Source of the DNA: a virus | Length of the DNA: 64,000 nucleotides | Reading direction: 5' to 3' (one strand) | IMG/VR virus record: IMGVR_UViG_3300008262_000149 | Location: 6,309 to 70,308 of that record | Part shown: positions 5,079 through 61,353 of the stretch, in pieces | How the letters are laid out: every line of letters starts with the position of its first letter | Position numbering within the stretch: position 1 is the stretch's first letter | Position numbers and translations under genes: made by a program | The notes under the pieces: generated by a model | Seen by the model: only the letters and a program-made list of their open reading frames with translations | Told to the model about the DNA's origin: nothing | The model's database searches: none

Positions 5079-6904
5079 TGGCAGGATTATTAGACGCCGT
5101 ACAAGGTGCTCTTACAGGCGGATCTAAAGCAGTAACTGGCCTGGCGTCGGGTGTTTCTGCTATGCTCTCTTCAAAAGATAAGATAAGCCAAGAAAACTCG
5201 AATGTAATTTATGCTAGTTTCGGATTGGCCGGTACCGCCGCCAAACAGCGGGTTTCCGGGTCTGGAACACTACCAGCGGCTCAGGCTAAAAGCACGTACA
5301 AAGCAAAAACGAATGATACTGAAAAGCTTCTGACCGATGTTGTGAAGTATTTAGTATCAATCAACGGTACTCTAAAGAAGCAAATTGACTTTGACAGAAG
5401 AGTATATGAAGAAAATGCTCTTGCTGCCAGAGAAGCAAAAGTTGAACAAAACAGTACGTTCGAAGAACTTGGAAAGCGATACGGTGCAGCAAACGATAAC
5501 CAAAAACCCGGTGGCGGCATCGTAGCCGGTATTCTAAGTGCGCTTGGCAGTCTTGGAAAATTAGGACTAGATGCATTACTCAAGGGGTTGGTCACAGCCT
5601 TTGAAGCGTTTTCTTCAGCCTGGAAATGGCTACGAGGAATTTCTTTCTTAAAGAATATAAAGAGTTTATTAGGACTTGCACGAGCACTTCCGATCGGACC
5701 AATTGCCGCTGCGCTGGCCGCGGCTGGTGCTATTGTGTGGGGTGTTGACAAGTTCATGAAAAATACTGCGATGGAACCGTTGCAGGCAAGAAAAGAATTG
5801 GAACAGATGTATGGCATGAAACCGGTTCTTGATGAATCTGGCAGATGGACTACAGGCTATACTCTTCCCGATGGCAAAACATATAAACCAAACGCGCTTC
5901 CTTCAAAATACCAAGATATTTTAAATGCGTATGGTCCTGGCGATAAAAGAAACGCCGCTGCTGTTGAAGCAACAAAAAGAATACAAGCAGATCCTGGGGC
6001 CTATGAACCATCTAAGATGGCTGAAGAGTTAAAGGGAGGACAACAAGTTGCTGCACCTACTCCATCAGGAACTCAATCAGCCTCTACAGCTGGCCAGTCG
6101 CCATACGATGTCGTATTGGGTTATGGCAAATTTGGAAAACCAGAAGACTACTTCAATGGTAGAAAGCTATCACAACTTACTGTTGCCGAGGCATTATGGT
6201 TCGGAAGAAACGTTTTAATTCCTAATTCTGGAAGTATGAATTCTAGTGCCATGGGCGCTTATCAAATTGTGTCAAAAACACTACAAGGTCTGGTTGATCA
6301 AGGCGTAGTTAAATTAACTGATACTTTTAATGCGGCAACACAAGATAAAGCTGCTAAGGCGATTTATGATCAAGCCAATAAAGCAGGTACTCTAAATAAG
6401 CAATGGGCTTACTATATTCCGTCATATGGAGGTACAGGACAAAGATCCGATCCTCGTTCTTTTGAAGAAGCAAGAATGGATATCCTGAAAAAGGAAGGAA
6501 CTCTTAAAGGAACTAATAGTGTTCCAATGAGTCCAGCTGCTTCATCTGATAGTCCATTACAACAAGCTGCTGATACTGCTGCAGATGCTGCCGATAAAAT
6601 GTTAACAAGCGTCGCCGAGTTTATTGGAACTCTTGGCGGGAAAATCTTAGGCCCAGGGAAAGTAAGAAATCTTACTACAACCGGACCAGATTTTGCAAAA
6701 CTCATTTCTGAAGAGTCTAGTAAAATTCAAAATCAAATTGCGATGGGTGAGAAAAAGACTAACACCGCAGCTGCCAATATACCGCCGGCTGCTCGTGCTT
6801 TAAAGTCTATTTCTCCAAACGGATCTATTTCTGTTGTTGATCCAAACTATCCTGGTACTGGCGGGATTGAAAAATATCTCGGGCACTATAGACTGGCATC
6901 ATAA
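5078..6904 (+). CDS. tail tape-measure / baseplate hub-like protein
   Basis: 608 aa; Gly/Ala-rich with a hydrophobic AAALAAAGAIVWG segment; a central region has a weak lytic-transglycosylase-like SSAMGAYQIV motif; its C-terminal module is duplicated in 7671..8447. Confidence 0.4.
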   Translation: MAGLLDAVQGALTGGSKAVTGLASGVSAMLSSKDKISQENSNVIYASFGLAGTAAKQRVSGSGTLPAAQAKSTYKAKTNDTEKLLTDVVKYLVSINGTLKKQIDFDRRVYEENALAAREAKVEQNSTFEELGKRYGAANDNQKPGGGIVAGILSALGSLGKLGLDALLKGLVTAFEAFSSAWKWLRGISFLKNIKSLLGLARALPIGPIAAALAAAGAIVWGVDKFMKNTAMEPLQARKELEQMYGMKPVLDESGRWTTGYTLPDGKTYKPNALPSKYQDILNAYGPGDKRNAAAVEATKRIQADPGAYEPSKMAEELKGGQQVAAPTPSGTQSASTAGQSPYDVVLGYGKFGKPEDYFNGRKLSQLTVAEALWFGRNVLIPNSGSMNSSAMGAYQIVSKTLQGLVDQGVVKLTDTFNAATQDKAAKAIYDQANKAGTLNKQWAYYIPSYGGTGQRSDPRSFEEARMDILKKEGTLKGTNSVPMSPAASSDSPLQQAADTAADAADKMLTSVAEFIGTLGGKILGPGKVRNLTTTGPDFAKLISEESSKIQNQIAMGEKKTNTAAANIPPAARALKSISPNGSISVVDPNYPGTGGIEKYLGHYRLAS

Positions 6905-10303: not shown

Positions 10304-10893
10304 CAATCACCCGCAAATTTGTCTTTCAATATCTTGCGACACTTAAACATGTCATAATGAAAGAATGGTTTGTACTTACATAACTTTTTATATATGCTCG
10401 GCCAAAGAATACTATCATCAATCTTCTTATTCCAGTGTCCAAAGAAACCAAGAATATCGTTTAGGATAATAATAGTCTCGATCGAGATCTCTCTACGTAA
10501 GTATTGCTTTAGTAGATATGGATGTTGTCCATTCTTTACAATAACATTATCGTCAAAATTTGTACACAGTTTATTTAAGTCTTGCTCAAAAATATAAGTC
10601 AAAGACTGTTGCCTCTTCAGCCAATCTGCGTATACCTGTTCGGACTTATCATCGAACAGATCGCCGATCCACTTTAGATCACCATCAACAAAGTTGGCAA
10701 CCAGGTACTGCAGTGGATTCTTATGCTTGGAGAGTCTATAGAACTGGTACTTGTCCTTGCGCGTCTCAAAACTCGATGCACTGGCAGTCACCTTACCATT
10801 GTATTTTACGTAGTCATAGTTGTCTGTGGTGAAGTGGCTTTTGACAGCAAGGAAAGTCTTGTAGGACTCAAATGGCGTCATTCTTCGATCCAC
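10303..10893 (-). CDS. gp59: gp59 helicase loader protein
   Basis: N-terminal YKTFLAVKSHFTTDNYDYVKYNGKV matches the T4 gp59 pattern YKLYLMIKQHMNGKYDVIKYN; position next to gene 32 as in T4. Confidence 0.7.
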   Translation of the reverse strand: MDRRMTPFESYKTFLAVKSHFTTDNYDYVKYNGKVTASASSFETRKDKYQFYRLSKHKNPLQYLVANFVDGDLKWIGDLFDDKSEQVYADWLKRQQSLTYIFEQDLNKLCTNFDDNVIVKNGQHPYLLKQYLRREISIETIIILNDILGFFGHWNKKIDDSILWPSIYKKLCKYKPFFHYDMFKCRKILKDKFAGD

Positions 10894-11063
10894 TCATCAT
10901 TTTCATCAGTATAGCCAAACTTTCGAAGAAGCTCAAATCCACCTACATCATCTCCTTCAAGAGTTCTATAGAGTGCGTATGCCAACTGGTCAGTCTGATC
11001 GCCGAGTTTAGAGACAAACTGTAGAGATGTCTCTACCATTCTCATGTATGGATCATCTTTCAT
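10878..11063 (-). CDS. small hypothetical protein (gp33-like position)
   Basis: 61 aa acidic; positional analogy to T4 gene 33 only. Confidence 0.2.
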   Translation of the reverse strand: MKDDPYMRMVETSLQFVSKLGDQTDQLAYALYRTLEGDDVGGFELLRKFGYTDENDEWIEE

Positions 11064-11311
11064 ACTGGCAACCTCGCAGACTTAGGAAGGTAGTTGAGAT
11101 CTTCGGCAGCTGCCTGAATCTTCGAACGGATCTTAATATTATTCTTGATGATAGAAGCAGCTGCTTCGATCTCAATGTTATTCTTTTCACAAAGGTGGAC
11201 GACGGCATCCATATAGTCTAGATTATACTTTGCCACCAATCTTTCAATTTCCCTAATAAACTTATCGTTTGACATAGTCTTTTGCAGAATAACGTCGTCC
11301 ACCATAATCAA
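11060..11311 (-). CDS. DsbA-like dsDNA-binding / late transcription accessory protein (putative)
   Basis: 83 aa; NIKIRSKIQAAAEDLN resembles the T4 DsbA region; positional analogy (59-33-dsbA). Confidence 0.3.
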   Translation of the reverse strand: MIMVDDVILQKTMSNDKFIREIERLVAKYNLDYMDAVVHLCEKNNIEIEAAASIIKNNIKIRSKIQAAAEDLNYLPKSARLPV

Positions 11312-11890
11312 TTATCCTCGATAAAAAATGTGAGCACCAATTTTAGCAGTGCGATCAAAAACTCTACCCCATGACGGACTTACATAGTCGGCATGATAGA
11401 ACTTTGCACCTCTTGTTACGTCTCCGTAATTTCCTAGGTACACATGTTCAGCGATTTCTTTGGCCTTGCGATACGCGGCCCAATCGCCAATTCGCTTTCC
11501 TCCCTCACACTTCCATGAAAACTGGCATACGCCTCTGGCCTTTTGATTAATGACCGCACATGGTGTTTTTGGGAATCGCTTGTCTTTTACGCGGTTCAAC
11601 ACGACGTTGTTCACCGCAATTCTACCTTTATAGGGTTCATGGCCTGCTTCAAAATATGTATTCTCGGCCATGCATTGGATTTGTTGTTTATCGTAAGCAC
11701 TGAGGTAAACAGGCTTCTTTACGATCTTTTCCTTTTCTATTACTTGAACTTCGGGAACCTTAATCACCTTGACCTCTGGTTCTTTCTGAGGAGTTGCAAG
11801 AGCTACACCAGTAACTGCAATAACACCTAGAAAAAAACCTTCGCCCCAACGTAGATAAGGAAAGTCCTTTCTGTTTTCGAATAGTTTCAT
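11312..11890 (-). CDS. SleB-like cell wall hydrolase with N-terminal membrane anchor (candidate endolysin)
   Basis: 192 aa; Hydrolase_2/SleB-like motifs (CMAENTYFEA...AVNNVVLNRV...CQFSWKCEG); hydrophobic N-terminal helix. Confidence 0.65.
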   Translation of the reverse strand: MKLFENRKDFPYLRWGEGFFLGVIAVTGVALATPQKEPEVKVIKVPEVQVIEKEKIVKKPVYLSAYDKQQIQCMAENTYFEAGHEPYKGRIAVNNVVLNRVKDKRFPKTPCAVINQKARGVCQFSWKCEGGKRIGDWAAYRKAKEIAEHVYLGNYGDVTRGAKFYHADYVSPSWGRVFDRTAKIGAHIFYRG

Positions 11891-26925: not shown

Positions 26926-27063
26926 TTATTCGTCTTCATCTTCATCATCAAGAAGTTCTTCTGGGAGATCCTCACCGCAGTAAGGACAGAAGAGAGGAGA
27001 AAGTGTGCAGTCTGATACTAATTTAAATTCCTCCTCGCAGGAGGGGCAAGTTGTCCAATCCAT
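26926..27063 (-). CDS. small zinc-ribbon protein with acidic tail
   Basis: CPSC...CPYC pairs; AAGGAAAA ribosome-binding site. Confidence 0.35.
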
Positions 27064-27078
27064 TAAATGTGTTTTCCT

Positions 27079-27086
27079 TATAAATA
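27079..27086 (+). promoter_or_regulatory. T4-type late promoter TATAAATA
   Basis: 57 nt upstream of the plus-strand GIY-YIG gene. Confidence 0.4.
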
Positions 27087-27142
27087 AGTGTGGTTCGCGG
27101 TCTCGTACACCCAACCACTCTAATGCCATTGGGAGCACCAGC

Positions 27143-27688
27143 ATGAATATTTACTATATATATGCCTATTTAAGATCTTCAAATAATACTCCCTATTATA
27201 TAGGGAAAGGTAAAGATGATAGAGCTTATGCAAAACATAAAGGCATCTCTACTCCAAAAGATCGTTCTAAAATTGTTATATTAGAATCTAATTTAACTGA
27301 AGTTGGAGCATTTGCTTTAGAGCGCCGTTATATCAAATGGTATGGTCGTAAAGATCTAAAAACAGGAATATTATTAAACAAAACAGATGGTGGAGAAGGA
27401 TCTTCTGGTTTAATTCATTCAAAGGAAACCAAAGCAAAAATATCACAATTAAAAACCGGTTCTAAAACTAAACCCCGCAGTGAAGAATTTAAAAAATTAT
27501 TAAGTGAAAAATATAAAGGCAAACCTCTTTCAGAAGAAACAAGAAGAAAGATGAGCGAAGCCGCTAAGAGACGTAAAACTCAACCAAGATCTGGTTGTAA
27601 ACATTCAGAAGAAACTAAAGCAAAAATAGCTATAGCTAAAATGGGAAATCAATGCGCTAGAAAATATCCTAAAGCTGAAAGCCTTTGA
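27143..27688 (+). CDS. GIY-YIG homing endonuclease with NUMOD3-like repeats
   Basis: IYYIYAY...PYYIGKGK plus repeated [11 protein letters not shown] / SEETKAKIA; GGGAG ribosome-binding site; lone plus-strand gene convergent with nrdB. Confidence 0.8.
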
Positions 27689-45268: not shown

Positions 45269-45880
45269 TTAATCCAGTTCTTGAATCTCGCAATAAAGGA
45301 CTCGTAAGGGCATGGGCATGCCCTTACGAACGTCATGATAGAGTTCATCCTTGTGCGCTTTACTCATCCCGGCCGGAGCCATCTTATGAAACGACTCCTT
45401 GTCTCCGGCTGAAGCGTGCTTGCGCATTGCCGTACCAGAAGCAGCAGCAATTCCTTCACCTGTGTCTGAACGCTCGCCGCCGACAGACTTGACCTTGATG
45501 CTCTTGAAGTTATAGTGTCCATGCCTCCCTTCAGTTCCATTATACTTGTGGAGCAAGTTATGAAACTCATGGACACGATCTGAGCCGACATGCATAGTTA
45601 CGTGTGTGTAACCAGCCTTATGCAGCTTAGACATCTGATGAAGCAACGTAGGATGATCTTTACCCATAGCCTCTACCTTCGCGCCCTTCACGGCACGAGA
45701 CAGATGCTTGACCTTCTGTTCTGGAGTCAGAGGATTCTTCTTGGCATCATGAGAACCGGTTGTCAAGATCTTATGATCTGCACCTTCCTTCTTAGCGGCA
45801 TCCATCACATGCTTTACGACCATTTCGTGGCCAGCATGCACAGGATTGAATCTTCCTTGAGTGATATGGATTGCCTTCAC
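45269..45880 (-). CDS. cytidylyltransferase-family nucleotidyltransferase (HxGH motif)
   Basis: GRFNPVHAGH fits the GxFxxxHxGH motif of NMNAT / heptose-1-P adenylyltransferase / CoaD; His-rich. Confidence 0.5.
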   Translation of the reverse strand: MKAIHITQGRFNPVHAGHEMVVKHVMDAAKKEGADHKILTTGSHDAKKNPLTPEQKVKHLSRAVKGAKVEAMGKDHPTLLHQMSKLHKAGYTHVTMHVGSDRVHEFHNLLHKYNGTEGRHGHYNFKSIKVKSVGGERSDTGEGIAAASGTAMRKHASAGDKESFHKMAPAGMSKAHKDELYHDVRKGMPMPLRVLYCEIQELD

Positions 45881-47046
45881 AGCGATTTGTCCTTGTTGAA
45901 GTTAGCAGCCGAGAACTCAGCACGATCAACAATCTTAGTAGGACGATTATGTCTTACCACCACAAATCCTTCAGGCTTAGATTTCTTTCCACTGATACTA
46001 TGATCAAACTCAGCACGACTCGAGAGTGTATTAGATAACACATCCTTTGCCTTCTGAAGATGGTTGTGCATCTGCAAAATGCGTTCGAAGTGACCACGAT
46101 TGCGTTGGACATGAGCAATATCTTGCTCCATTGCCGCAGTCTTTGATGCCTTCGAGGCAGCAGTCTTTACAGAGTCGATCTTCTTCTGATGCGACTTAGC
46201 AAGATGCGCCATAAACTCATTTACATTCGGCTTAGTACCGGTACGAACCGTATGGTTGATATATGTCTTGAGAGGAATACGGTGGCTCTCGATGGCCGCA
46301 TGAGTTTCAGGACCGGTCTTTGCATGCAACTTAGCAGCAGCTGCCATGTGCTTGACAAACTTAGCCTGGTGTTGTGGCTTATAATCAATGCCAGACATGT
46401 CATGTTCTGTAGAGATAAGATGCACATCCTTGTGCAGTCCAAACTCATCAAGGTTTGGTGCATACTCGGCCTTCATGTCTTCGAGGTTCTTACCGTTATA
46501 CTTGGTATGAACAGCAACACCGATCTTTGAACGAAGTGCTGCTTTGCCATGATGCGAGTTCTTATCAGCAGAGTACGTAATGGTATTTGGTGTAAAGTGA
46601 ATCTTATTGCCCGATTCGTGCACATCATTTTGTGTGTGCATGATATCACCTTGGAACACACCCTTACGGGGAGTTACCTTCGGCAGATGATCCAAGGCAG
46701 CTTTCAGTTTCTCTACAAGACCAGGAGCATGACCATGATTGCGTTCAATGTCCTCATGCGTGTAGTTGATCTTTGGATTCTTGTTGAACGCAGACTTGGA
46801 TGCAACAAAGAACTTACCAGTTTCAGGATGACGACCAAACACAACAGAAGGCGAACCGTCATACTTCATGGTTACCTTCGTGGCATTCTCTTTACCAGTT
46901 AGTTTATCATGCACATCCTTGAGATTATGATAAGCGTGTGAGAACCCTTCGGCGCCAGCATTAATCACATGATCTTCTGCATGCTCAAGATGCTTGAGCT
47001 TTTCTTCACTTACTTCTTCGGTCAAGAAATTTTTAAATGCTGTCAT
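45877..47046 (-). CDS. ATP-dependent ligase-like nucleotidyltransferase (KxDG)
   Basis: Motif I TMKYDGSPSVVFG, motif IV/V PEGFVVVRHNRPTKIV; unusually long (about 300 aa) His-rich spacing between the motifs. Confidence 0.45.
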   Translation of the reverse strand: MTAFKNFLTEEVSEEKLKHLEHAEDHVINAGAEGFSHAYHNLKDVHDKLTGKENATKVTMKYDGSPSVVFGRHPETGKFFVASKSAFNKNPKINYTHEDIERNHGHAPGLVEKLKAALDHLPKVTPRKGVFQGDIMHTQNDVHESGNKIHFTPNTITYSADKNSHHGKAALRSKIGVAVHTKYNGKNLEDMKAEYAPNLDEFGLHKDVHLISTEHDMSGIDYKPQHQAKFVKHMAAAAKLHAKTGPETHAAIESHRIPLKTYINHTVRTGTKPNVNEFMAHLAKSHQKKIDSVKTAASKASKTAAMEQDIAHVQRNRGHFERILQMHNHLQKAKDVLSNTLSSRAEFDHSISGKKSKPEGFVVVRHNRPTKIVDRAEFSAANFNKDKSL

Positions 47047-47648
47047 TTTACCGTCTTTATCGATCCATCAGGGTTTACAAAATATGCTTCAAACTTAATG
47101 TTTGGATATTCTTTTTGCAGCGAAAGAAATGCATGAAGATTGCTAGGAGCATCATCAAACAATCTCAGCTTAACGTAGTTCTTTGTATTTATATACTTGC
47201 GGAAGATGATCTTCTTAGCTTCTGCCGAAGAGTCGATCTTCAAGTTACCAGCGCGCTCAACGTGAATCTGATCAATCGGAAGACCATGATCACGAAACGT
47301 CTGAAGGAAGAGATCCTTGTTATCAAAGTCAGCCCGTGCAGTGCAGATGATTACCCGGCTGTGAGGATTCTTCTTCGAGTTGGCAAAGATCGCTTTCGCC
47401 TTTGCAACCATACGAGAGATTGGAGTCGAGGTCTTGCGAAATACCTCTGCGCTCGCAAACTCTCCGAAGTCGTAGGTCTCGCCTTCCTTACGCTTGTAGG
47501 TGTTAAACTCCTGGTTATCCAACATTCGAACAACCTTGCCATCCTTTACGACAGCAACCTTTGCCTTCGTATGGAAGAGTGTCTCATCGATATCGAATAT
47601 CGTGAGCGTACCAGAACCAACAAACTCTCTAAACCTTTTCTTGATCAT
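47043..47648 (-). CDS. HAD-family phosphatase (polynucleotide 3'-phosphatase-like)
   Basis: DxDxT motif IFDIDETLFH; likely leaderless mRNA from the adjacent promoter. Confidence 0.55.
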   Translation of the reverse strand: MIKKRFREFVGSGTLTIFDIDETLFHTKAKVAVVKDGKVVRMLDNQEFNTYKRKEGETYDFGEFASAEVFRKTSTPISRMVAKAKAIFANSKKNPHSRVIICTARADFDNKDLFLQTFRDHGLPIDQIHVERAGNLKIDSSAEAKKIIFRKYINTKNYVKLRLFDDAPSNLHAFLSLQKEYPNIKFEAYFVNPDGSIKTVK

Positions 47649-47653
47649 GGTTT

Positions 47654-47682
47654 ACCCTACAACGTTTTTGAAAAAATGTACA
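47654..47682 (-). promoter_or_regulatory. early promoter TGTACA-N17-TAGGGT, 5 nt before the ATG (leaderless mRNA predicted)
   Basis: repeated promoter family. Confidence 0.45.
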
Positions 47683-48432
47683 CTATAAAAAACATGCCAG
47701 GTTCAATTTTTTTTCGATAATATTGACTGTTTTCCCATCAACCGGAGCGATATTAAATGGAGATTTAGAATTTGTTGGAATACTAAACTGCATCTCAAAA
47801 GTGAATTGATAATTGCCACCACCTTTATATTGGACGCGCGCTCTGTATGTAGCATTTGCAGCGGTTCCAAACCGTGGAATGCCTTTTAACTTTAAGGGGT
47901 TCTTAGATCCCATTAAATAGAACCCGTGGGTTCCAACATTTACATAATATGTTTTTTTCTTTATATAATACTCTTCAATTTTTGATGCTGGAATAGAGCC
48001 TTTAATATCTTTAAAGAGAACTTTATCACGCTCATACATTTCTCTATTTGACATATTACCAAAAAAAGCTTTCCATTCATCATCTTTGTCGCGTTTTGCC
48101 GGTTTGTCTTTCCAGTTTTCTTTAATAATATCAAATATGCCGACTTCTTCTGCTAATTCTTTAATAAAGAGTTTTTCATCTTCAGTAGATTTGATGTCTC
48201 CAAATTTCCACGGATTAATTTTATCTTTTGAATCGTATTTAATTACTAGAGACCCAGCAGAAGCTGCAGATATCTTAAGTTCACAACCAGCTTTTTGATT
48301 GCCTTTCATAATCATCAAATCTGGTTGGTCATGACCTGCTCCAGCAGGCCTAAAGTCTTTAGGAACAATCCCATATTTTTTTAATAAATTTGATGCATTG
48401 ATTTCGTATTGAAATCCTTGTTGGGCTGCCAT
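47683..48432 (-). CDS. PD-(D/E)xK-like nuclease (putative)
   Basis: DQPDLMIMKGNQKAGCELK fits a PD...ExK pattern. Confidence 0.35.
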   Translation of the reverse strand: MAAQQGFQYEINASNLLKKYGIVPKDFRPAGAGHDQPDLMIMKGNQKAGCELKISAASAGSLVIKYDSKDKINPWKFGDIKSTEDEKLFIKELAEEVGIFDIIKENWKDKPAKRDKDDEWKAFFGNMSNREMYERDKVLFKDIKGSIPASKIEEYYIKKKTYYVNVGTHGFYLMGSKNPLKLKGIPRFGTAANATYRARVQYKGGGNYQFTFEMQFSIPTNSKSPFNIAPVDGKTVNIIEKKLNLACFL

Positions 48433-49859: not shown

Positions 49860-50405
49860 TTAAAAGGGTGTAAACTTCTTAATTAGATTGCGAACGACAA
49901 CATCAAAACCGTCTTTGAGGTCTTCAATTGCAATATCTTTACCATCAACATTCAGCTCGTAACCGGCTTCATTACGACTACGGTATCCAGTGAGAGTGTT
50001 ACCATTATAGATGAAAGAAAACCAATCATCATTCGATTGAATGTCAGCGTTACCAGAGACCCAAGCGTTACCAGAGACCCAAGCGTTACCAGAGACCCAA
50101 GCGTTACCAGAGACCAAAGCGTCACCAGAGACCTCAGCGTCACCATAGACCCAAGCGTTACCAGAGACCCTAGCGTTACCAGAGACCAAAGCGTCACCAT
50201 AGACCCAAGCGTTACCAGAGACCCTAGCGTTACCAGAGACCAAAGCGTCACCAGAGACCCAAGCGTTACCAGAGACCCTAGCGTTACCAGAGACCAAAGC
50301 GTCACCAGAGACCCTAGCGTTACCAGAGACCAAAGCGTTACCAGAGACCTCAGCGTTACCAGAGACCTCAGCGTTATCCAAAATATTTTTCATATCAAAC
50401 TCCAT
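49860..50405 (-). CDS. hexapeptide-repeat (left-handed beta-helix-like) protein with C-terminal globular domain
   Basis: About 20 tandem copies of the 6-residue unit xVSGNA. Confidence 0.55.
   Translation of the reverse strand: MEFDMKNILDNAEVSGNAEVSGNALVSGNARVSGDALVSGNARVSGNAWVSGDALVSGNARVSGNAWVYGDALVSGNARVSGNAWVYGDAEVSGDALVSGNAWVSGNAWVSGNAWVSGNADIQSNDDWFSFIYNGNTLTGYRSRNEAGYELNVDGKDIAIEDLKDGFDVVVRNLIKKFTPF
50037..50390. repeat. in-frame tandem DNA repeat (18-nt unit gcgttaccagagacccaa and variants)
   Basis: Directly visible in the sequence. Confidence 0.8.
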
Positions 50406-52268: not shown

Positions 52269-53087
52269 TTACTTACCGACGTTCACGATACCCTTGAAGT
52301 CATAAGGAACAACAACGGTCTGAACCTTGCCGGCCTTCACGCCTTCGGCGATATCCTGCAGGGCCATAGCAGCCATGTACTCGGTAGCACCGCGGTTAGC
52401 ATTCAGAGCAGCAATACGCTGTGCTTCCAGCTTAGCAGTCTGGACTTCAACTTCCTTACGCTTCTGTTCGTTCTGAGCCTGAACCAGCGCATTAGCCGAT
52501 GCTACGATGTTACCAGCCGGTTTGATCTGACGGACAAGAACCTGCGACAGCGTAATGGATCCATCAAGCTTTTCAGCAGCCAGCTGGCTAACGATTTCCT
52601 GACGGATCAGCTGTTCCATCTCTGCACGATTGTCAGCCATCTTCAGCGACTCGTACTTACGAGCAACCTTATAAGCAGCATTACGACCAAGCTGACGAAT
52701 GTAGTTGTACATCAGCAGAGTGTCGCCTTCCTCGGTGTCAGCGTGGAAGCCACGGTTCTTCTCGATGAAGAGCTCGGCAACCGAGGTTGGATTGATCGAG
52801 TAGATCACAGCCATGTCGAAGTCGGCAACGGTCGAGTTATCCGAAGCCAGAGGAGTCAAATCAGTAATATCAACCTGAACATCCTTGGTTGGGAAAGTCA
52901 TAACATCACCGAAGATCGTCTGGTTCACAGAACCAGGCATCAGTTCCGTGGTTTCGATGGTCTTGTCGAATGCACGACGAACACCGACCTCACCGGTCTC
53001 AACTCGAGTACAAGCAGCAGTCGTAGCCAGCAGACCAGCGAGCACAGCAACCTTAGCATAACGATTCATTATATTCATTCCTTTCAA
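52269..53087 (-). CDS. SPFH/band-7 (stomatin/prohibitin-like) lipoprotein
   Basis: Signal peptide with LLATTAAC, then a band-7 domain and a coiled-coil. Confidence 0.5.
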   Translation of the reverse strand: MKGMNIMNRYAKVAVLAGLLATTAACTRVETGEVGVRRAFDKTIETTELMPGSVNQTIFGDVMTFPTKDVQVDITDLTPLASDNSTVADFDMAVIYSINPTSVAELFIEKNRGFHADTEEGDTLLMYNYIRQLGRNAAYKVARKYESLKMADNRAEMEQLIRQEIVSQLAAEKLDGSITLSQVLVRQIKPAGNIVASANALVQAQNEQKRKEVEVQTAKLEAQRIAALNANRGATEYMAAMALQDIAEGVKAGKVQTVVVPYDFKGIVNVGK

Positions 53088-53263
53088 TTAAAGTAAGATA
53101 ACAATAGATGCAACAATCAAGATTGCCAAGGTGGCACAAGCTAAACTATACCCCAGCACCTTGGCAAGCTGGAGCTTTTCTCGACCACTTGCAGCAATGA
53201 ATCCCTGGATACCCAGAAACACCATTGCAAAGATGGCCAGAAATGCAATAATCATTTTACTCA

Positions 53264-53890
53264 TTAGTTAGGTCCACTTCCATTTCCCCAGGCATCAACT
53301 GGACCTTCATATCCAGTCTCTGCCCAACGCTTAGCAATACGAGCATCTACTTCTTCAAACGACAGAGGTTCGTAGTTGGTATGCTCGACCGAGACACACA
53401 GGTAACGAGGATCAGGCATCTCTGTATCCTCGGCATATCCATGCTTCCACCAGCCCATCACCTCGTTCGCATGCAGGTGACCATGAACGTTCACCTTGAA
53501 ACGATGTGTGATACAATCTGGGTGCAGAGGAATATGACTCAGGATGAACTGGTCGGTGAACACACGAACACCATACAGCGATTCGAAACCAACCTCGTAG
53601 TAGTCCTTATCACGAAAGATATCGTGGTTGCCACGAACCAGACGCTTCTTGCCGTTCAGTCGCTTCACCAGATGAAGGTACTTACGGTTGATAACAACAT
53701 CACCTAGGTGGTAAACAACATCGTTCGGCTTGACCTTCGCGTTCCAGCGCTCGATCATAGTCTCATCCATCTCTTCGTTAGAGGTGAATGGACGCAGAGG
53801 ACTACCATCTGGCAGCTTGAACTTTTCCCACGAATTGGTATGTCCGAAGTGTGTATCGGAGATAACAAAACGATTCACAGAATTAGTCAT
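53264..53890 (-). CDS. calcineurin-like metallophosphoesterase
   Basis: ISDTHFGH, GDVV, GNHD motifs. Confidence 0.6.
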   Translation of the reverse strand: MTNSVNRFVISDTHFGHTNSWEKFKLPDGSPLRPFTSNEEMDETMIERWNAKVKPNDVVYHLGDVVINRKYLHLVKRLNGKKRLVRGNHDIFRDKDYYEVGFESLYGVRVFTDQFILSHIPLHPDCITHRFKVNVHGHLHANEVMGWWKHGYAEDTEMPDPRYLCVSVEHTNYEPLSFEEVDARIAKRWAETGYEGPVDAWGNGSGPN

Positions 53891-54119
53891 CGTAACATTC
53901 TTCCAGTTTATCATTTGCAAACATAACCAGCACATGCGCCAGATCCAGCGCCTGCTCCTTGGTCAGCTGGGTATACCAGTAGCCAAAGTCGTAGCGATCT
54001 TTTTCGGATTCTGGTCTTGGAAAGGTGAGTTGGACGCAGCGGCCGTCGGGCCCGCCGAAGAAGCCGACCATCGACATCTTGCCAGTGCGGCATTGAACAG
54101 ATTTAAATTGAGTGCTCAT
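53883..54119 (-). CDS. hypothetical protein
   Basis: 78 aa. Confidence 0.3.
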   Translation of the reverse strand: MSTQFKSVQCRTGKMSMVGFFGGPDGRCVQLTFPRPESEKDRYDFGYWYTQLTKEQALDLAHVLVMFANDKLEECYDD

Positions 54120-54174: not shown

Positions 54175-54407
54175 CAAAAAAATTACTGTTGAAGCAACAT
54201 TTCGATCAATGGCTTCAGTTCATCAGCGTATTGTTGGCCAACGCTTGTGCTCAGGATTAGAACAGCAGCGCCGATTAGAGCAACCTTGATTGCTATAGAC
54301 TTGTATTTTGACATTTCTTCTTACCTGCCTTGGATTTGGGTTTACAAACGTCAGGGTGAAACATAGTGTCTCTCAGGTGTAATATTTATAAAACCATAAA
54401 TAGGAGC

Positions 54408-55439
54408 ATGACGACATGCATACTTATTCCTGCCCACAACGAGGAAGTTGTGTTGCAGAGCACGCTCAATTCTCTCTATGAAGTGGGATTCGATCCCACC
54501 ATTATTTATTGTGTCGACGACTTCTCTACAGACAAAACCTACGATATTTGTATTGAAAATAAAATAAATGTCTGTAGGACTCCAACCGGACTAGGAAAGG
54601 CCGGCGCACAGCAGTACGCCATTCAGCATTTCGAGCTGTGTGATAAATACAAATATGTAATCATGATAGATGCTGACACAAAAATAGATCAAAACTTTAA
54701 AGATGTTTTAACGTTGAATCTGCTACACTACAATGACGTAGATCTTTTTATTGGACAGGTTACGAGTTCTAAAGCAAATCATATCTACTCTGCGTATCGA
54801 ACTGTAGAATACACGTTCTCGCACGAGGTGGTTAAAAAGGGACAGGCAGCTTTCGGAGTTGTTTATGTTGCGCCTGGGTGCGTTTCAATATATTCAACCG
54901 ACATATTAAGACATTTGGAATTTGATTCTTCGGTGCTTACAGAAGATATGGATCTCACGTTACAGGTTCATAAGTTAGGCGGAAAGATCAAATACCTACA
55001 TGATGTGAAGGTGATTACGCAGGATCCGAGTACGTTCAAAGACTACCATAAACAGATGATGAGATGGTACGGTGGATTCTGGCAGGTCATTATGAAATAC
55101 GCCAACAGAAATAACAGGTTTAAGGGCGTTGATTTTTATCTGCTTTATTTGATATTAGATTCTTTGGTACTGAATAGACTCATCATGCTTTCTGCGAGCT
55201 TCATAGTACTTGGTCTAAAATCTATCTTATTGGTCTTGTTTATTGATATGTGCATATTTGCTCTCGCTGCAGTATATGCTTCATACAAAAATGATCGCAA
55301 TGATTTAATATATAAAGTTCCAGTTCTATATCTTTTGTCGTTTTTTAATACGTATGCTTACATAAAAAGTTTCTTTGACGTTATAGTGCTTCGAAAGAAA
55401 AAGAATAACTGGAACAAAGTTAAAAGATACGGAGAATGA
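54408..55439 (+). CDS. processive family-2 glycosyltransferase (PgaC/NodC/HAS-like) with C-terminal transmembrane helices
   Basis: CILIPAHNEE, DAD (IMIDADT) and Q-x-x-RW (KQMMRW) motifs; hydrophobic C-terminus. Confidence 0.6.
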   Translation: MTTCILIPAHNEEVVLQSTLNSLYEVGFDPTIIYCVDDFSTDKTYDICIENKINVCRTPTGLGKAGAQQYAIQHFELCDKYKYVIMIDADTKIDQNFKDVLTLNLLHYNDVDLFIGQVTSSKANHIYSAYRTVEYTFSHEVVKKGQAAFGVVYVAPGCVSIYSTDILRHLEFDSSVLTEDMDLTLQVHKLGGKIKYLHDVKVITQDPSTFKDYHKQMMRWYGGFWQVIMKYANRNNRFKGVDFYLLYLILDSLVLNRLIMLSASFIVLGLKSILLVLFIDMCIFALAAVYASYKNDRNDLIYKVPVLYLLSFFNTYAYIKSFFDVIVLRKKKNNWNKVKRYGE

Positions 55440-55440
55440 A

Positions 55441-55869
55441 ATGAAAAAGTATATACTGGGAAGCTTACTTGCTCTCGTCGTTCCTGCCACTGCACATGCT
55501 GAAGACAAAAACTTTCCAGGAAGCGCATGGGTAAACGTAACAGGTCCACATGTTTCTGGAGAAGAAAAAGGAAACTGGGTTCTATCCGGAAGAATAGAAC
55601 AAGACGCCGTTCTTACCGAGGTTGCAGACTGGAAACTCGCCGCAACAACCGGTATTGGATTTAGCACCGATACAAAAGGTTTTGAATGGAACAACAAAAT
55701 CGTTCCATCGGTAGGAGTGAAAGCAACTCGAGAAGCTTTTGGCGGTGTGATGAACGTGACCGTTCAGTATGCCTACGAGAGACGCTTTGGCAAACTATAC
55801 AAAACCGACGATCGCTCAGATGGCGGCGTGCAGGTTGTGGTTAACTACTGGACAGGTTGGGGAAGATGA
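55441..55869 (+). CDS. secreted beta-rich protein (signal peptide)
   Basis: Signal peptide MKKYILGSLLALVVPATAHA. Confidence 0.4.
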   Translation: MKKYILGSLLALVVPATAHAEDKNFPGSAWVNVTGPHVSGEEKGNWVLSGRIEQDAVLTEVADWKLAATTGIGFSTDTKGFEWNNKIVPSVGVKATREAFGGVMNVTVQYAYERRFGKLYKTDDRSDGGVQVVVNYWTGWGR

Positions 55870-56270
55870 TTTACAATCCATCAAATGGAGTTATTGCATT
55901 CATCATGAGATGGCCCATACTCGGCGGTTTGATCGCCGGAATCGGAGCTATCAATACAGAAGGATGGCTAGCAGCCGTGCTTGCCTTTGTGGCAGGAAGC
56001 GTCGCCGGTGCCTTCGGTCTCAGCAAACTTTTCAAAGATCAAATATGTGATTGCGAAAAGGATGGTTATTTTAAGCCTGAAGGTTCTAAGCTAGAATGGA
56101 TCGTTGAATACAATCCAGAGTCAGGTGCAGAAAGACCGTGGGACGTATATACGATGTTTGCAGGTATTGAAGCTACAAAGCAACACTATGCGTCGTATGC
56201 TACAGAAGAGAATGCTCTCAAGAAGATCGAGGTTCTAAAGGAAATGGCTTCCAAGGTTACAAAAAAGTAA
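55857..56270 (+). CDS. membrane protein
   Basis: Two hydrophobic segments. Confidence 0.35.
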   Translation: MGKMIYNPSNGVIAFIMRWPILGGLIAGIGAINTEGWLAAVLAFVAGSVAGAFGLSKLFKDQICDCEKDGYFKPEGSKLEWIVEYNPESGAERPWDVYTMFAGIEATKQHYASYATEENALKKIEVLKEMASKVTKK

Positions 56271-56742
56271 CCTTGGAAAACCCTTCAGTTTCAGTTGGTT
56301 CTTCGTAAGAAGCAATCATACGGTCAATGGCATCCTGTGGAATAGTTTTACCCAAACGTTCTGAGCGTTCAGACAGTCGCCGTTCTAATTCCTCAGGTTC
56401 AGGTGTAGGGAACACTACACACTCAAACTCGTAACCATACTTCTTGAGCTTATCAATGAACTGCTTGCGCGACTTTGCCGACATATTAGTACGATCAACA
56501 TAAAGATCATATCCGTTCTGAGCTGCAATCAGCATACGAGCTACCATAGCCATGTCTGCAAAGCGGATCGTCTCCTTAAAGATCTGATCATAGGTAAAGC
56601 CGTAGTCATCGGCCAAACCATTGATGATGTTATCAGTAGAGACGATCCATGCACCCTTAGGCCGGTTTTCGATAAGCCACGTGGACTTACCTGAACCAGG
56701 AACACCAACGAGAATTGTACACTTAGGCATATTATACTCCAA
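56257..56742 (-). CDS. pnk: polynucleotide 5'-kinase (Pnk kinase domain only)
   Basis: P-loop ILVGVPGSGKSTW and layout like the T4 PseT N-terminal domain; no phosphatase domain. Confidence 0.6.
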   Translation of the reverse strand: MEYNMPKCTILVGVPGSGKSTWLIENRPKGAWIVSTDNIINGLADDYGFTYDQIFKETIRFADMAMVARMLIAAQNGYDLYVDRTNMSAKSRKQFIDKLKKYGYEFECVVFPTPEPEELERRLSERSERLGKTIPQDAIDRMIASYEEPTETEGFSKVTFL

Positions 56743-56882: not shown

Positions 56883-58097
56883 TTAGTCATTGTAAGTTAC
56901 TCCAGGAAACCAAGCATCACGAATCGCTTCGTACTTTACAGTCTTGGTCAAGTTGTTACGAATAACATTCTTAACTGCTTCGACAATCTTGTGATCGTCA
57001 GTCTCATCCCAGCACTTAAAAATCGTAGCACGAGTGTACTGATTGAACGCAGGTGCGATTTCGAGAGCAAAGGTCTTACGATCAACATTCTCTTCACGGA
57101 TATGCTCGAGCATATTGCTAATCAGTTGAGCCTGACCATACACTTCGATATTGAACAAGTGCTCAAAACGACCAAGCTCAAAACGATCCTCAGCAGGTAG
57201 ATGAGCCTTAATGTCATCCAGTGCTTCATCCAGAATCAGTTCGACAATGTTGCGATCCTGTAGGATAGCTTCCTTCGCCCTGTGAATCTGCAGGTACCAA
57301 TGGCACTTCAGCTTAAGCATGTGCCCATCATAAAAACGAACTACGAAACCTTCGAGGTCTTCCAGATCACGAACGTACTCGACGAAAGCCTTCATATCAG
57401 TCTGTGGTTCGAAGGTACGAACAACTGGAATACCCGCAAGTTCAGCAAATGAAGAAATATAGAAATAATCCATATATTCACCAGTCTTCATGTTTCGCAT
57501 TGCAGTCAAGATAAGAGTATCTTCCTTGTAATCCAAAACAATGCGCTGCTTGCGTGAACACCATTCAAAGATCGGAGTAAGACCTAACAAGATAGCATTG
57601 TTCGCCAATGCTTCGTATTGGGGATTGTTCTTAACGAACTTTTCAACAGGCTTTGCCACATCAGTAGCGCCCATCTTCGTACCCCAGATCATCTGATCGA
57701 TCACAACGAATGGCGCAATCATCGAGCCATCGAGCTTTTCGAGGATAGCATGTGGACGCGACAGATCAACAACATGGTCCTGAGTCTCTTCACGCTCATT
57801 CACGTTGAAGAACTTGTGGAAAGGACGACGAAGGATCTCACCAGTCTCAGTGTCGAAGATGATACCGCGGCACTCACGACGAAGGCGAGCGTGAAGGTTT
57901 TCTACTTCATAATGGTCGTGGTTTGCACGTAGATCATCAGACGCAAGCACATCAGGAAACGTATCAGCCATCATCACGTTGTAGTTGATGACGGTGTAGC
58001 CTTCCTTCTCGGCAACCACGAACTCGTCGCGGCCTTCGATAGCAGGCAGCACATCAGAGATGTTGGTGATATATGGAAATTCGTAGTTCATAATCAA
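56883..58097 (-). CDS. rnlA: RNA ligase 1 (RnlA-like)
   Basis: Motif I EKLDGSM (T4 KEDGSL), FEW, EGFVV. Confidence 0.7.
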   Translation of the reverse strand: MIMNYEFPYITNISDVLPAIEGRDEFVVAEKEGYTVINYNVMMADTFPDVLASDDLRANHDHYEVENLHARLRRECRGIIFDTETGEILRRPFHKFFNVNEREETQDHVVDLSRPHAILEKLDGSMIAPFVVIDQMIWGTKMGATDVAKPVEKFVKNNPQYEALANNAILLGLTPIFEWCSRKQRIVLDYKEDTLILTAMRNMKTGEYMDYFYISSFAELAGIPVVRTFEPQTDMKAFVEYVRDLEDLEGFVVRFYDGHMLKLKCHWYLQIHRAKEAILQDRNIVELILDEALDDIKAHLPAEDRFELGRFEHLFNIEVYGQAQLISNMLEHIREENVDRKTFALEIAPAFNQYTRATIFKCWDETDDHKIVEAVKNVIRNNLTKTVKYEAIRDAWFPGVTYND

Positions 58098-59593: not shown

Positions 59594-59944
59594 TTAACTG
59601 TAATGAACAAATGTCATCAGCTTCCATTTGTGATCCATATAATGACCAAACGACGGGAAGTAGTTCATGAACTGCTCCACACACTTATCTTTATATTCGC
59701 CGAGCATGGTTAAATCAATGTCTGAGTGAGTATCTTCATAATCGCCCCAGCGAAGGTCTCCTGAGTCAAAAAGGATCTTACCAAAGATCATATAAGAACC
59801 AGACATGCCATCTAGGATGAGAGCCATATCCTTGTTGTCCTTTGTCTCATCATAAACCTCATCCCAAGCTTCTGAGAACTCTTCTGAGAACTCATCGATC
59901 TTTACACCATACACAGTGTAGTAGTGTGTGTTAATTCCCATCAC
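59594..59944 (-). CDS. hypothetical acidic protein
   Basis: ATGA coupling with the gp41 stop. Confidence 0.35.
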   Translation of the reverse strand: MMGINTHYYTVYGVKIDEFSEEFSEAWDEVYDETKDNKDMALILDGMSGSYMIFGKILFDSGDLRWGDYEDTHSDIDLTMLGEYKDKCVEQFMNYFPSFGHYMDHKWKLMTFVHYS

Positions 59945-61353
59945 TTGAATCCTTGAAATTTATTACGATTGAACTTGTTTACCGGCTTAGACTCTTCATT
60001 CATTCTACTACCAGAACTTGACGTATCAAAGACTGGCGTATCATCAACAATATCATCCTGTGCAGACTCCTCTGTGTTGTACAACTTCATCTTCGAGTAG
60101 TCAACACCGATGACGAACCGTTTATGATGAGCAGGATCTCCATAACGATTCTTCAACTGCTTGACCATAATCTGACCGAGTTGCTGTAGTTCCTCGCTCG
60201 AGATCAAGGCAAACATAAAGTCGGCTGTGGCCGGTAGACCAAACGACTCAGAGGTATCCTCAAGGCCAACGTCAGATGACGAATAACCGGTACGAGTTGT
60301 CTGAGTAGCCGATACGATCGGAACGTTGCACTCGACTGCCAGCCCACGAAGTTCTTCGGCAATCGCCTTAATCATCGTATAGGAGTTGACATTCGACCCG
60401 GCACGAATACGACTGGACATACAGATGTTCAGGTAGTCGATATAGATGATGTCAGGTACAAAGTTCTTTTTGATCTTAAGTTCGTTGATCAGGTGGCGGA
60501 AGTTAGCCGAACCAGCACACGCGGTCGGGTATTCCTTTACAATCAACTTGCCCTTAGCGCGCTTCTTCACACGGGCCATGAGAGTATCATAGGTTGTCTT
60601 TGGAAGCTCACGAAGATCAGCAGTCGACATACCAAGCAAGTTAGTATCGATACGCTCTGCAATCTTCTCCTCAGACATTTCCATAGTGATGTATAGGACG
60701 TTGAAGCCAGACATGAGATTCTGTGCAGCACAATGACACATGAACAGAGACTTACCCACACCAGTGCCGGCAAGCGCAATGTTCAGGGTCTTGCGTGGCA
60801 AACCGCCATTCGTAATCTTGTTGAAGAAATCCAGGTCAAACGGAATCTTCACCTCGGTACGATGATAGAACTCATAACGAGCATCCGAGTCGTCAAGGAA
60901 GTCGTGGCCGATGCTCGAGTCGAACGAGACAGCCAACGCGTCAGACAGAAGCTGAGGGATGGCACCAACCGAGATGCCATCCTTCCTCTTGTTATCATCA
61001 ACAAGCCTGATCGACTCCATGAGGGCATTGTAAAGAGCTTTGTCCTTACAAAACTTCTCGGTGGTATCGATCAACCAATCGATCTCACGATCTTCGCTCT
61101 TGGTCAGACCACTGATAGTAGCCTCGGCGGCCTTAAACTCTTCGTCCTTGAGCCCACTCTTGTTATTGAGATCAATAGTAAGAGCCTCCTTCGTAGGAAA
61201 CTTACTATATTTGCCAACGTACTCTTCAATCAGTTCATAAACAGTACGATCAACATTATCAGTGAAATACTCAGACTTGAGAAACGGAATTACCTTACGT
61301 GCATACTCTTCATTATGAATCAGATTTCCAAAGATAATGTTCTCAATTTTCAT
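59941..61353 (-). CDS. gp41: replicative DNA helicase gp41 (DnaB-like)
   Basis: Walker A LAGTGVGKS, DnaB-family motifs. Confidence 0.9.
   Translation of the reverse strand: MKIENIIFGNLIHNEEYARKVIPFLKSEYFTDNVDRTVYELIEEYVGKYSKFPTKEALTIDLNNKSGLKDEEFKAAEATISGLTKSEDREIDWLIDTTEKFCKDKALYNALMESIRLVDDNKRKDGISVGAIPQLLSDALAVSFDSSIGHDFLDDSDARYEFYHRTEVKIPFDLDFFNKITNGGLPRKTLNIALAGTGVGKSLFMCHCAAQNLMSGFNVLYITMEMSEEKIAERIDTNLLGMSTADLRELPKTTYDTLMARVKKRAKGKLIVKEYPTACAGSANFRHLINELKIKKNFVPDIIYIDYLNICMSSRIRAGSNVNSYTMIKAIAEELRGLAVECNVPIVSATQTTRTGYSSSDVGLEDTSESFGLPATADFMFALISSEELQQLGQIMVKQLKNRYGDPAHHKRFVIGVDYSKMKLYNTEESAQDDIVDDTPVFDTSSSGSRMNEESKPVNKFNRNKFQGFK

Follow-up and report, generated by a model that had tools for sequence, protein, structure and literature searches.

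A three-gene cassette in a T4-like phage as a candidate minimal exopolysaccharide synthesis machine

Introduction

Here, we describe three adjacent plus-strand genes at positions 54408-56270 of a 64,000-nucleotide (nt) stretch of viral DNA (IMG/VR record IMGVR_UViG_3300008262_000149, positions 6,309 to 70,308), referred to below as the window, which by its sequence is part of a divergent T4-like phage. The genes encode a predicted glycosyltransferase (GT) of family 2 (GT2), an exported β-strand protein and a small membrane protein; the last two are named after their open reading frames (ORFs), ORF2 and ORF3. We propose that together they form a minimal synthase-dependent exopolysaccharide machine that the phage would install in the envelope of a Gram-negative host, and we put the probability of this reading at about 60%. 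That the three genes act together is considerably more secure and, in our view, very likely: their linkage is conserved in 31 viral and 62 cellular loci, which strongly supports a functional cassette.

An earlier sequence-only reading of this DNA had reported the three plus-strand genes, and its coordinates proved exact. The GT gene (54408-55439, 343 amino acids) lies in a frame that opens with GTG at 54366; we take the ATG at 54408 as its start because the homologues begin at that form (MxxC[IV]LIPAxNEE). ORF2 (55441-55869) encodes 142 amino acids and ORF3 (55866-56270) 134; the ORF3 frame opens with TTG at 55857, and its likely start, ATG 55866, was likewise set by the homologues. The TGA stop codon of the GT gene lies 1 nt before the ATG of ORF2, and the stop codon of ORF2 shares the sequence ATGA with the start codon of ORF3, so that the three genes form a translationally coupled operon.

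A predicted processive-type synthase

In Pfam, GT matches Glyco_tranf_2_3 (8e-21), Glyco_trans_2_3 (7e-19), Chitin_synth_2 (5e-8) and also Glycos_transf_2. Its best NCBIfam profile is PgaC_IcaA (6e-24), followed by EpsU and NodC, and the same order holds for all 38 aligned members of its family, with PgaC_IcaA values down to 3e-30. The family is sharply bounded, with 70 proteins at 214 bits or more and the next at 63 bits, and the database entries of its members bear generic names only.

Invariance of motifs was judged over the 38 homologues, which share 38-77% identity. The predicted cytoplasmic GT-A domain, delimited by Pfam and the structure model, covers residues 1 to ~205 and holds the invariant D38 (54519-21) and D88xD90 (DAD; 54669-77), as well as TED 178-180 (54939-47), which is (T/A)ED across the family with E179-D180 invariant. 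The QxxRW motif, Q216-M-M-R-W220 (55053-67), has invariant Q, R and W and sits on an interface helix (residues 210-232) of the model. Further invariant residues are GGK63-64, G116-Q117, R131, P156-G157, Q205-D-P207 and, in a conserved W335-x4-R340 tail at the C-terminus (W335NKVKR340; 55410-27), W335 and R340. Between the interface helix and the tail, the structure model and a hydropathy scan place the membrane helices at residues ~240-327 (55125-55388), predicted as 240-254, 257-267, 270-295 and 304-327. The GT2 DxD motif, the QxxRW motif and the C-terminal transmembrane helices named in the sequence-only reading are thus all present in the motif alignment, the model and the hydropathy scan.

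The motifs fall in register with those of known processive synthases. The segment L-T-E179-D180-M-D-L-T aligns with ITEDAET of BcsA, ITEDIDIS of PgaC and GDDRRLT of the Chlorella-virus hyaluronan synthase (CvHAS), and Q216-M-M-R-W220 aligns with QRGRW of BcsA, QRLRW of PgaC and QQTRW of hyaluronan synthase (HAS). Against PDB sequences, the GT family profile matches CvHAS at 2.5e-13 over profile positions 19-318, through TED, QxxRW and the membrane region, E. coli BcsA at 3e-12 over the catalytic core including TED and QxxRW, and chitin synthases at 2e-6. GT and E. coli PgaC share 23% identity (E 1e-16), again with TED and QxxRW in register.

The AlphaFold (AF2) model of GT has a predicted local distance difference test score (pLDDT) of 90.8 and a predicted template modelling score (pTM) of 0.89. 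In a Foldseek search, its 13 best PDB matches are hyaluronan synthases, at query TM-scores (TMq) of 0.74-0.81, followed by BcsA and chitin synthases. The closest, with the membrane part included, is the Chlorella-virus hyaluronan synthase 7sp7 (TMq 0.80, E 2e-16). From these sequence and model comparisons, GT is very probably a membrane-embedded processive-type GT2 synthase of the HAS/chitin-synthase/PgaC/NodC/BcsA class; this is a family assignment, from which we infer the activity.

The exported β-strand protein and the small membrane protein

ORF2 was described in the sequence-only reading as a secreted protein, and it does begin with a classical signal peptide (residues 1-20, 55441-55500), made up of KK, a hydrophobic core and AHA directly before ED. 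The mature part has six long amphipathic antiparallel strands of 8-15 residues each (27-34, 47-61, 64-77, 86-99, 102-115 and 126-138). Its AlphaFold model (pLDDT 90.2) is an open six-strand sheet with two tight turns at one edge and longer loops at the other; the long loops carry the invariant D77 and the conserved W83-N-N85, which is invariant among close relatives. Family-averaged hydropathy alternates in all strands, and conservation is higher on the polar than on the hydrophobic face (entropy 1.83 versus 2.26 bits), as would be expected of a channel lumen and not of a sandwich core. The Sec signal peptide, the even number of strands and the short turns opposite longer loops are those of outer-membrane barrels.

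No significant match to ORF2 was found in Pfam, PHROG or NCBIfam (VPA0252, at 0.022, is not significant), and a Pfam search with 24 of its two-repeat relatives gave one weak PorP_SprF match (0.002) and no described outer-membrane protein family. Searching 1.84 billion representative proteins with a profile, we recovered 216 relatives. Many of these are proteins of 250-300 amino acids with two tandem copies of the domain, hence 12 strands, while the phage protein has a single copy; others, of ~470-550 amino acids, combine two copies with an anchor at the N-terminus, a LysM domain and a linker rich in proline. Since six strands cannot close a barrel and the bacterial two-repeat form implies a 12-strand unit, the phage ORF2 would act at least as a dimer. 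Taking model and sequence together, we give even odds to ORF2 being an outer-membrane channel, as half of such a 12-stranded unit.

ORF3 is a small membrane protein, as the sequence-only reading had it, with two hydrophobic segments at residues 9-27 and 35-56 in the hydropathy scan. It consists of a conserved N-terminal motif (MIYNPSNGVIAFIMRWP), the two hydrophobic helices and a lineage-specific C-terminal domain of ~80 amino acids. Its Pfam match to DUF2963 is below that family's cut-off. ORF3 is a probable inner-membrane accessory subunit of the synthase.

The same module in viral loci

We compared 31 viral loci, which include the window, four assembly contexts and 25 IMG/VR viral contigs, several of them 200-360 kb long. 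An ORF2-like gene follows the GT gene in 29 of the 31; in 25 it is at most 88 nt away, and in 4 only the deacetylase gene lies in between. An ORF3-like gene, detected with a hidden Markov model of the first 45 residues, comes next in 25. More than half (16/31) also have a polysaccharide deacetylase of family CE4 (PF01522) with a signal peptide, and some have an OmpA-like peptidoglycan-binding domain fused to the ORF3 homologue or a GH16 gene. In one locus (L005), the GH16 glycoside hydrolase gene (10760-11479) adjoins the module.

The closest relative of the cassette, in locus L001, is 64% identical for all three proteins and has the same opposite-strand arrangement. Another IMG/VR contig (L029, 169.6 kb), whose GT is 34% identical to that of the window, is the sole viral locus with a two-repeat form of ORF2 (293 amino acids). 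With that gene and a bacterial-type ORF3 motif (below), it bridges the viral and cellular sets and is a candidate for an intermediate between the two forms of the module.

The same module in cellular genomes

Cellular genomes were searched with the two-repeat family, using one genome per species. The search returned 60 loci, most of them from Acidobacteriota (Terriglobia, Vicinamibacterales and Blastocatellia) and ~10 from bacteria of the Candidate Phyla Radiation (CPR, Patescibacteria). A GT of the same family, ~340 amino acids long and scoring 200-336 bits against the phage-family profile, lies in the flank of 57 of the 60, and in 55 it is directly upstream of the repeat gene on the same strand. 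The GT of one such locus (L031) shares 35% identity with the phage GT from end to end and retains the W..V.RY tail at its C-terminus. A deacetylase-like ORF is present in 41 loci, usually directly upstream of the GT gene; the three that we checked are Polysacc_deac_1 proteins (1e-19 to 4e-22). In 55 of 62 cellular loci, the ORF directly after the repeat gene opens with the motif M(P/Y)xPGxGSxSxxIHxLAKxP, and a hydrophobic helix comes next; a model of this motif matches the ORF3 position of the viral L029 at 3e-9.

The phage cassette is, on sequence grounds, the viral form of an old operon with the order [deacetylase]-synthase-β-repeat protein-membrane protein. A search of 8 million full texts returned no description of the acidobacterial operon.

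The long β-repeat proteins (470-550 amino acids) of L034, L046, L075, L082 and L032 have an anchor, a coiled coil, LysM, a proline-rich linker and two repeats. They come from CPR or unclassified bacteria or from an unbinned soil contig, not from Acidobacteriota, and look like a tethered form suited to a wall that has no outer membrane. In a Terriglobia metagenome-assembled genome (L047, 2217-10656), a GH16 gene lies beside the module and a galactose-oxidase/glyoxal-oxidase-like protein is encoded after it; the ORF3 homologue there has 664 amino acids and an M48-peptidase-like segment. The GH16 and oxidase-like neighbours may be product-tailoring enzymes.

Proposed mechanism

In the mechanism that we propose, GT would take a UDP-sugar from the host, most likely UDP-GlcNAc. 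By analogy with its class, D38 and D88xD90 would bind UDP and the metal, D180 of TED would be the base and W220 of QxxRW would hold the acceptor, with the growing chain pushed through or along the 3-4 C-terminal helices into the periplasm. ORF3 could be a functional analogue of PgaD/IcaD that supplies membrane helices or regulation, its N-terminal motif and helix associating with a synthase that is without the two N-terminal helices of PgaC and HAS. ORF2 would be exported by Sec, and the model, the synteny and the repeats suggest that two copies give the 12-stranded unit that bacteria encode in one chain; this unit might conduct or bind the polymer at the outer membrane or on its way through it. 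As in Pga/Ica, the set would be completed by the CE4 deacetylase with its signal peptide, which about half of the related phages and the majority of bacterial loci have.

A product based on N-acetylhexosamine (HexNAc) is somewhat favoured, because the synthases of poly-N-acetylglucosamine (PNAG), chitooligosaccharide and hyaluronan are the closest curated families, CE4 enzymes are partners and LysM is fused to ORF2-type repeats in a number of cellular relatives. The purpose might be to coat or glue the infected cell, so that receptors are masked, superinfection is excluded, cells aggregate or the virocell is protected; this is speculative and draws only on the chlorovirus analogy. In its boldest form, the proposal would be that large lytic phages carry a self-sufficient three-protein trans-envelope machine of ~1.9 kb, with a new kind of barrel made of two identical six-stranded halves, that this undescribed system is also widespread in Acidobacteriota and CPR bacteria, and that the phage uses it to wrap the cell in a HexNAc polymer. 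We hold this full version only tentatively, with the odds somewhat against it.

Weighing the alternatives

Several results weigh against an exopolysaccharide machine of this kind. GT scores 84.7 bits against the PgaC/IcaA equivalog TIGR03937, whose cut-off is 422.3, and all 38 family members are far below that cut-off; against NodC (TIGR04242, cut-off 550) it scores 42.2 bits, and it is also far below the CelA cut-off. It is without the two N-terminal membrane helices of PgaC and HAS, as hydropathy and the PgaC alignment indicate; GT starts where residue 79 of PgaC is, and therefore has no counterpart of the PgaC helices. The ORF2 model has no significant Foldseek match in the PDB (best E 0.13), its final residue is not aromatic, and its six-stranded chain cannot alone close a barrel. 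ORF3 and E. coli PgaD show no sequence similarity (E 0.26) and are alike only in size and two-helix topology. The cellular ORF3 motif model ranks the other viral ORF3 positions first, but at scores of 0.13-0.4, so that the viral match is significant only via L029. A tblastn search with three phage deacetylases found no homologue in the 64-kb window. Lastly, ~10 CPR genomes hold two-repeat homologues, and since CPR bacteria are generally regarded as having no outer membrane, the family is probably not confined to organisms that have one.

The CPR proteins keep the amphipathic pattern (hydrophobic face +1.07 versus +1.12, polar face -0.69 in both), which fits a role other than in an outer membrane, for example as a polysaccharide-binding sheet, at least there. 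Either the ORF2-type protein works in a different hydrophobic setting in these bacteria, or it is a glycan-handling sheet and no barrel. The second option is part of the alternative that survives best, in which GT makes a short oligosaccharide or a glycan retained in the periplasm (a NodC-like chitooligosaccharide or a glucan of the OPG type) and ORF2 is a β-sheet that binds or handles glycan, with no pore. Besides the CPR occurrences, this agrees with the NodC profile matching all 38 family members (to 1e-22), with the small size and few membrane helices that GT shares with NodC, and with the LysM and OmpA-like peptidoglycan-binding fusions to the partners, which point to the periplasm or cell wall. 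However, the deacetylases of related loci have signal peptides, unlike the cytoplasmic NodB, there is no NodA or NodIJ-type partner, and a hydrophobic face less conserved than the polar one would be unusual for a sandwich core. We consider this alternative unlikely, though clearly the strongest of the rivals.

The sequence-only reading had proposed a comparison with BcsA, PgaC, HAS and GtrB, and had itself raised modification of a lipid carrier in the manner of GtrB. A non-processive GT of this sort would transfer sugar onto a lipid, either polyprenyl phosphate (GtrB, ArnC) or a glycolipid (GT21 and MGlcDAG synthases, HpnI), and the sugar would later decorate lipopolysaccharide or the cell surface, as in seroconversion. 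A PHROG annotated as GtrB-like O-antigen conversion does match GT (3e-6), and there is a weak match to Glyco_transf_21 (2e-4, below cut-off); pairs of a GT2 and a CE4-like enzyme of the ArnC/ArnD type exist in nature, and glycolipid synthases also have the D, D, D, QxxRW set. The PHROG match covers residues 3-97 only, however, and GtrB (5ekp, 1.7e-4), ArnC (6e-5) and DPMS (1.4e-5) match only profile positions ~3-131, so that the likeness to these enzymes is limited to the nucleotide-binding N-terminal ~100-130 residues, whereas HAS and BcsA align through TED and QxxRW, and HAS through the membrane region as well. With QxxRW and TED aligned to the processive synthases and GtrB matching in the N-terminal part alone, the assignment to the processive-synthase family stands. 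All top structural matches are hyaluronan synthases, and the best polyprenyl-type enzyme, PcManGT, appears only at rank 17 (TMq 0.68); no GtrA flippase or GT-C partner of the GtrC/ArnT type was found in the 31 viral loci, and HpnI matches only 2 of the 38 family members. A lipid transferase is improbable on this evidence.

The weakest alternative, in which the cassette is a moron that is inert or in decay and contributes nothing to infection, could appeal to its orientation opposite to its neighbours and to the lack of a close relative among cultured phages, but it is highly implausible given three intact, translationally coupled ORFs, 46-77% identity of all three proteins across many independent contigs with invariant catalytic residues, and a gene order that is constant across T4-like and jumbo-sized viral contigs.

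Phage setting and control elements

A gp41-type primase-helicase is encoded at 59941-61353 (-), 62% identical to a protein of Stenotrophomonas phage DLP6 and ~60% identical to cyanomyovirus ones, and genes for an AAA_33 kinase and a T4-type RNA ligase 1 are present as well. We counted 12 copies of the T4 late-promoter octamer TATAAATA in the window where 1.96 would be expected, a number that none of 100 shuffles reached. Ten of them lie on the minus strand, which carries most of the genes, and the enrichment indicates T4-type late transcription in the phage. None of 50,697 deposited phage records holds DNA nearly identical to the window. A tblastn search of these records with GT gave generic GT2 matches only, at no more than 27% identity, and the GT family is therefore absent from them.

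The minus strand carries almost all genes from 8.5 kb to the end of the window, and the neighbours of the cassette are of early type. The cassette is the sole plus-strand coding block from ~27.7 kb to the window end. It had been described as holding the only plus-strand genes in ~30 kb; the isolation is real, but it extends ~26.7 kb upstream rather than 30 kb, as far as a NUMOD3 homing-endonuclease gene (27005-27688, +). A plus-strand ORF of 227 amino acids at 47037-47720 has no Pfam match, overlaps minus-strand ORFs and may be a shadow ORF. The GC content of the cassette (41.1%, window 43.5%) is at the 20th percentile among windows of the same size; being unremarkable, it led us to reject a case for recent horizontal acquisition based on composition. 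None of the three cassette proteins matches a PADLOC anti-phage defence family.

Upstream of the cassette, we read a divergent intergenic control region at 54315-54407. A perfect T4-type late-promoter motif TATAAATA lies on its minus strand at 54383-54390 and faces a gene at 54314-54183, which encodes a 43-amino-acid, single-helix membrane protein (54183-54314, -) and diverges from the cassette; a 46%-identical gene of this type holds the same position beside the GT gene in L001 (7777-7908). On the plus strand, CATAAATA lies at 54395-54402, followed by GGAG (54403-54406) and the GT start codon. The sequence-only reading had put a near-late-promoter for the cassette at 54387, which does not hold: the plus-strand CATAAATA is further downstream, and the position falls within the minus-strand motif. 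Nor is CATAAATA enriched in the window (4 copies, 2.5 expected), and it ends 5 nt before the GT ATG, too close for a normal leader; both points speak against a plus-strand late promoter for the cassette. In L001 and L007, the two closest relatives, (C/G)ATAAATA likewise precedes the ATG by 4-5 nt. A sigma-70 promoter scan gave no plus-strand candidate upstream of GT and a count no higher than in shuffled sequence. Many T4 late genes are oriented opposite to early-type neighbours, as the cassette is.

At the other end, a terminator scan and the sequence show a palindromic hairpin with a 13-bp stem (CTTCCAAGGTTAC AAAAAA GTAACCTTGGAAA; 56248-56279), in which the converging genes for ORF3 (+) and the AAA_33 kinase (-) both end. 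It is a probable bidirectional terminator that closes the cassette.

The kinase gene (56257-56742, -; AAA_33/zeta-toxin-like, 7e-21) adjoins the gene for T4-type RNA ligase 1 (56883-58097, -; 4e-33), a pairing that resembles the PNK/Rnl RNA-repair pair. In L001, a kinase 46% identical to this one is encoded at the corresponding place, with radical-SAM/SPASM and methyltransferase genes between it and the cassette. On the upstream side, a Metallophos_2 phosphoesterase (53264-53935) is encoded beside a pair formed by a two-helix membrane protein of 58 amino acids (53088-53264, -) and, directly downstream, an SPFH/Band-7 protein (52269-53087, -; Pfam 5e-14), a possible lipoprotein whose hydrophobic N-terminal stretch resembles a signal peptide and ends in AAC. 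With the cassette, these three make up a small cluster of envelope-directed genes. Further away, an ORF of 181 amino acids (49860-50405, -) has ~20 six-residue units in tandem that follow the pattern (N/D)A(x)VSG (GNAEVSG, GNARVSG, GDALVSG etc.) and looks like a repeat protein; the repeats also give long open frames in other reading frames. The region that encodes a DUF6267 protein of 389 amino acids (45877-47046, -; 5e-101) gave a weak, spurious tblastn match to a GT (E 0.003).

Significance and comparison with known systems

If the proposal is true, lytic phages take an active part in remodelling the surface of a cell while they kill it, as a bacterial-virus counterpart of hyaluronan and chitin production by chloroviruses. 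This would bear on superinfection exclusion, on adsorption of progeny to debris, on aggregation and on carbon export in waters and soils. The cassette would also be the smallest known gene set for synthesis of a polymer and its passage across a Gram-negative envelope, with a synthase that has no N-terminal helices and possibly a split outer-membrane barrel of 2 x 6 strands. It further draws attention to an uncharacterised family of operons that Acidobacteriota and CPR bacteria share, and at 1.86 kb in total the three genes are directly expressible in a surrogate host.

The synthase-dependent systems for exopolysaccharides such as cellulose, PNAG, alginate and Pel are large, are encoded by the host and have a central role in biofilms. 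Among them, the cassette resembles the PNAG systems PgaABCD and IcaADBC: the GT2 synthase has the D, DxD, TED and QxxRW motifs and PgaC_IcaA as best curated profile for 38 of 38 members, ORF3 is a small two-helix inner-membrane protein of 134 amino acids against 137 in PgaD, and related loci have an exported CE4 deacetylase. It differs in that the phage GT is without the ~75-residue N-terminal two-helix segment of PgaC, ORF2 is a six-strand unit of 122 amino acids where Pga has TPR repeats and a 16-strand porin, the deacetylases of related loci are without the C-terminal glycoside-hydrolase domain of PgaB, no cyclic di-GMP module is evident, and the cassette is encoded by a lytic-type phage.

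The chlorovirus hyaluronan and chitin synthases are virus-encoded processive GT2 enzymes, and the infected cell extrudes the polysaccharide. Chlorovirus hyaluronan synthase is the closest solved structure to GT and its best full-length sequence match in the PDB. However, the identity is 16-17%, HAS has two extra N-terminal membrane helices, and it works alone in a single eukaryotic plasma membrane, whereas the phage GT has a bacterial host and two partner proteins suited to a two-membrane envelope.

NodC is likewise a small GT2 with few C-terminal helices, and as with NodC and NodB, relatives of the phage GT pair with a CE4 deacetylase. The phage-side deacetylases differ in having signal peptides, NodA and NodIJ genes are absent, and exported partners are present. 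The GtrABC systems are also three-gene phage cassettes of a GT2 and membrane proteins, and they alter the host surface, but GtrB-type enzymes are without TED and QxxRW, and our cassette is without the GtrA flippase and the GtrC GT-C. Gtr cassettes are typical of temperate phages, not of T4-like phages.

A further likeness is to the operon of Terriglobia, other Acidobacteriota and CPR bacteria, which shares an orthologous GT (35% identity, same length, same tail), the gene order and the β-repeat family. It differs from the phage cassette in having two repeats in one chain rather than one (L029 excepted) and in its downstream protein, often ~660 amino acids long with an M48-peptidase-like piece. 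To our knowledge, virus-encoded polymer synthases have so far come from algal giant viruses, and we found no description of a phage-encoded synthase-dependent polysaccharide module in the 8 million full texts. Processive GT2 enzymes and polymer synthases of viruses are thus already known; what is new here is that the set is minimal, with three proteins, that its exported protein has a single repeat and that T4-like and jumbo phages carry it.

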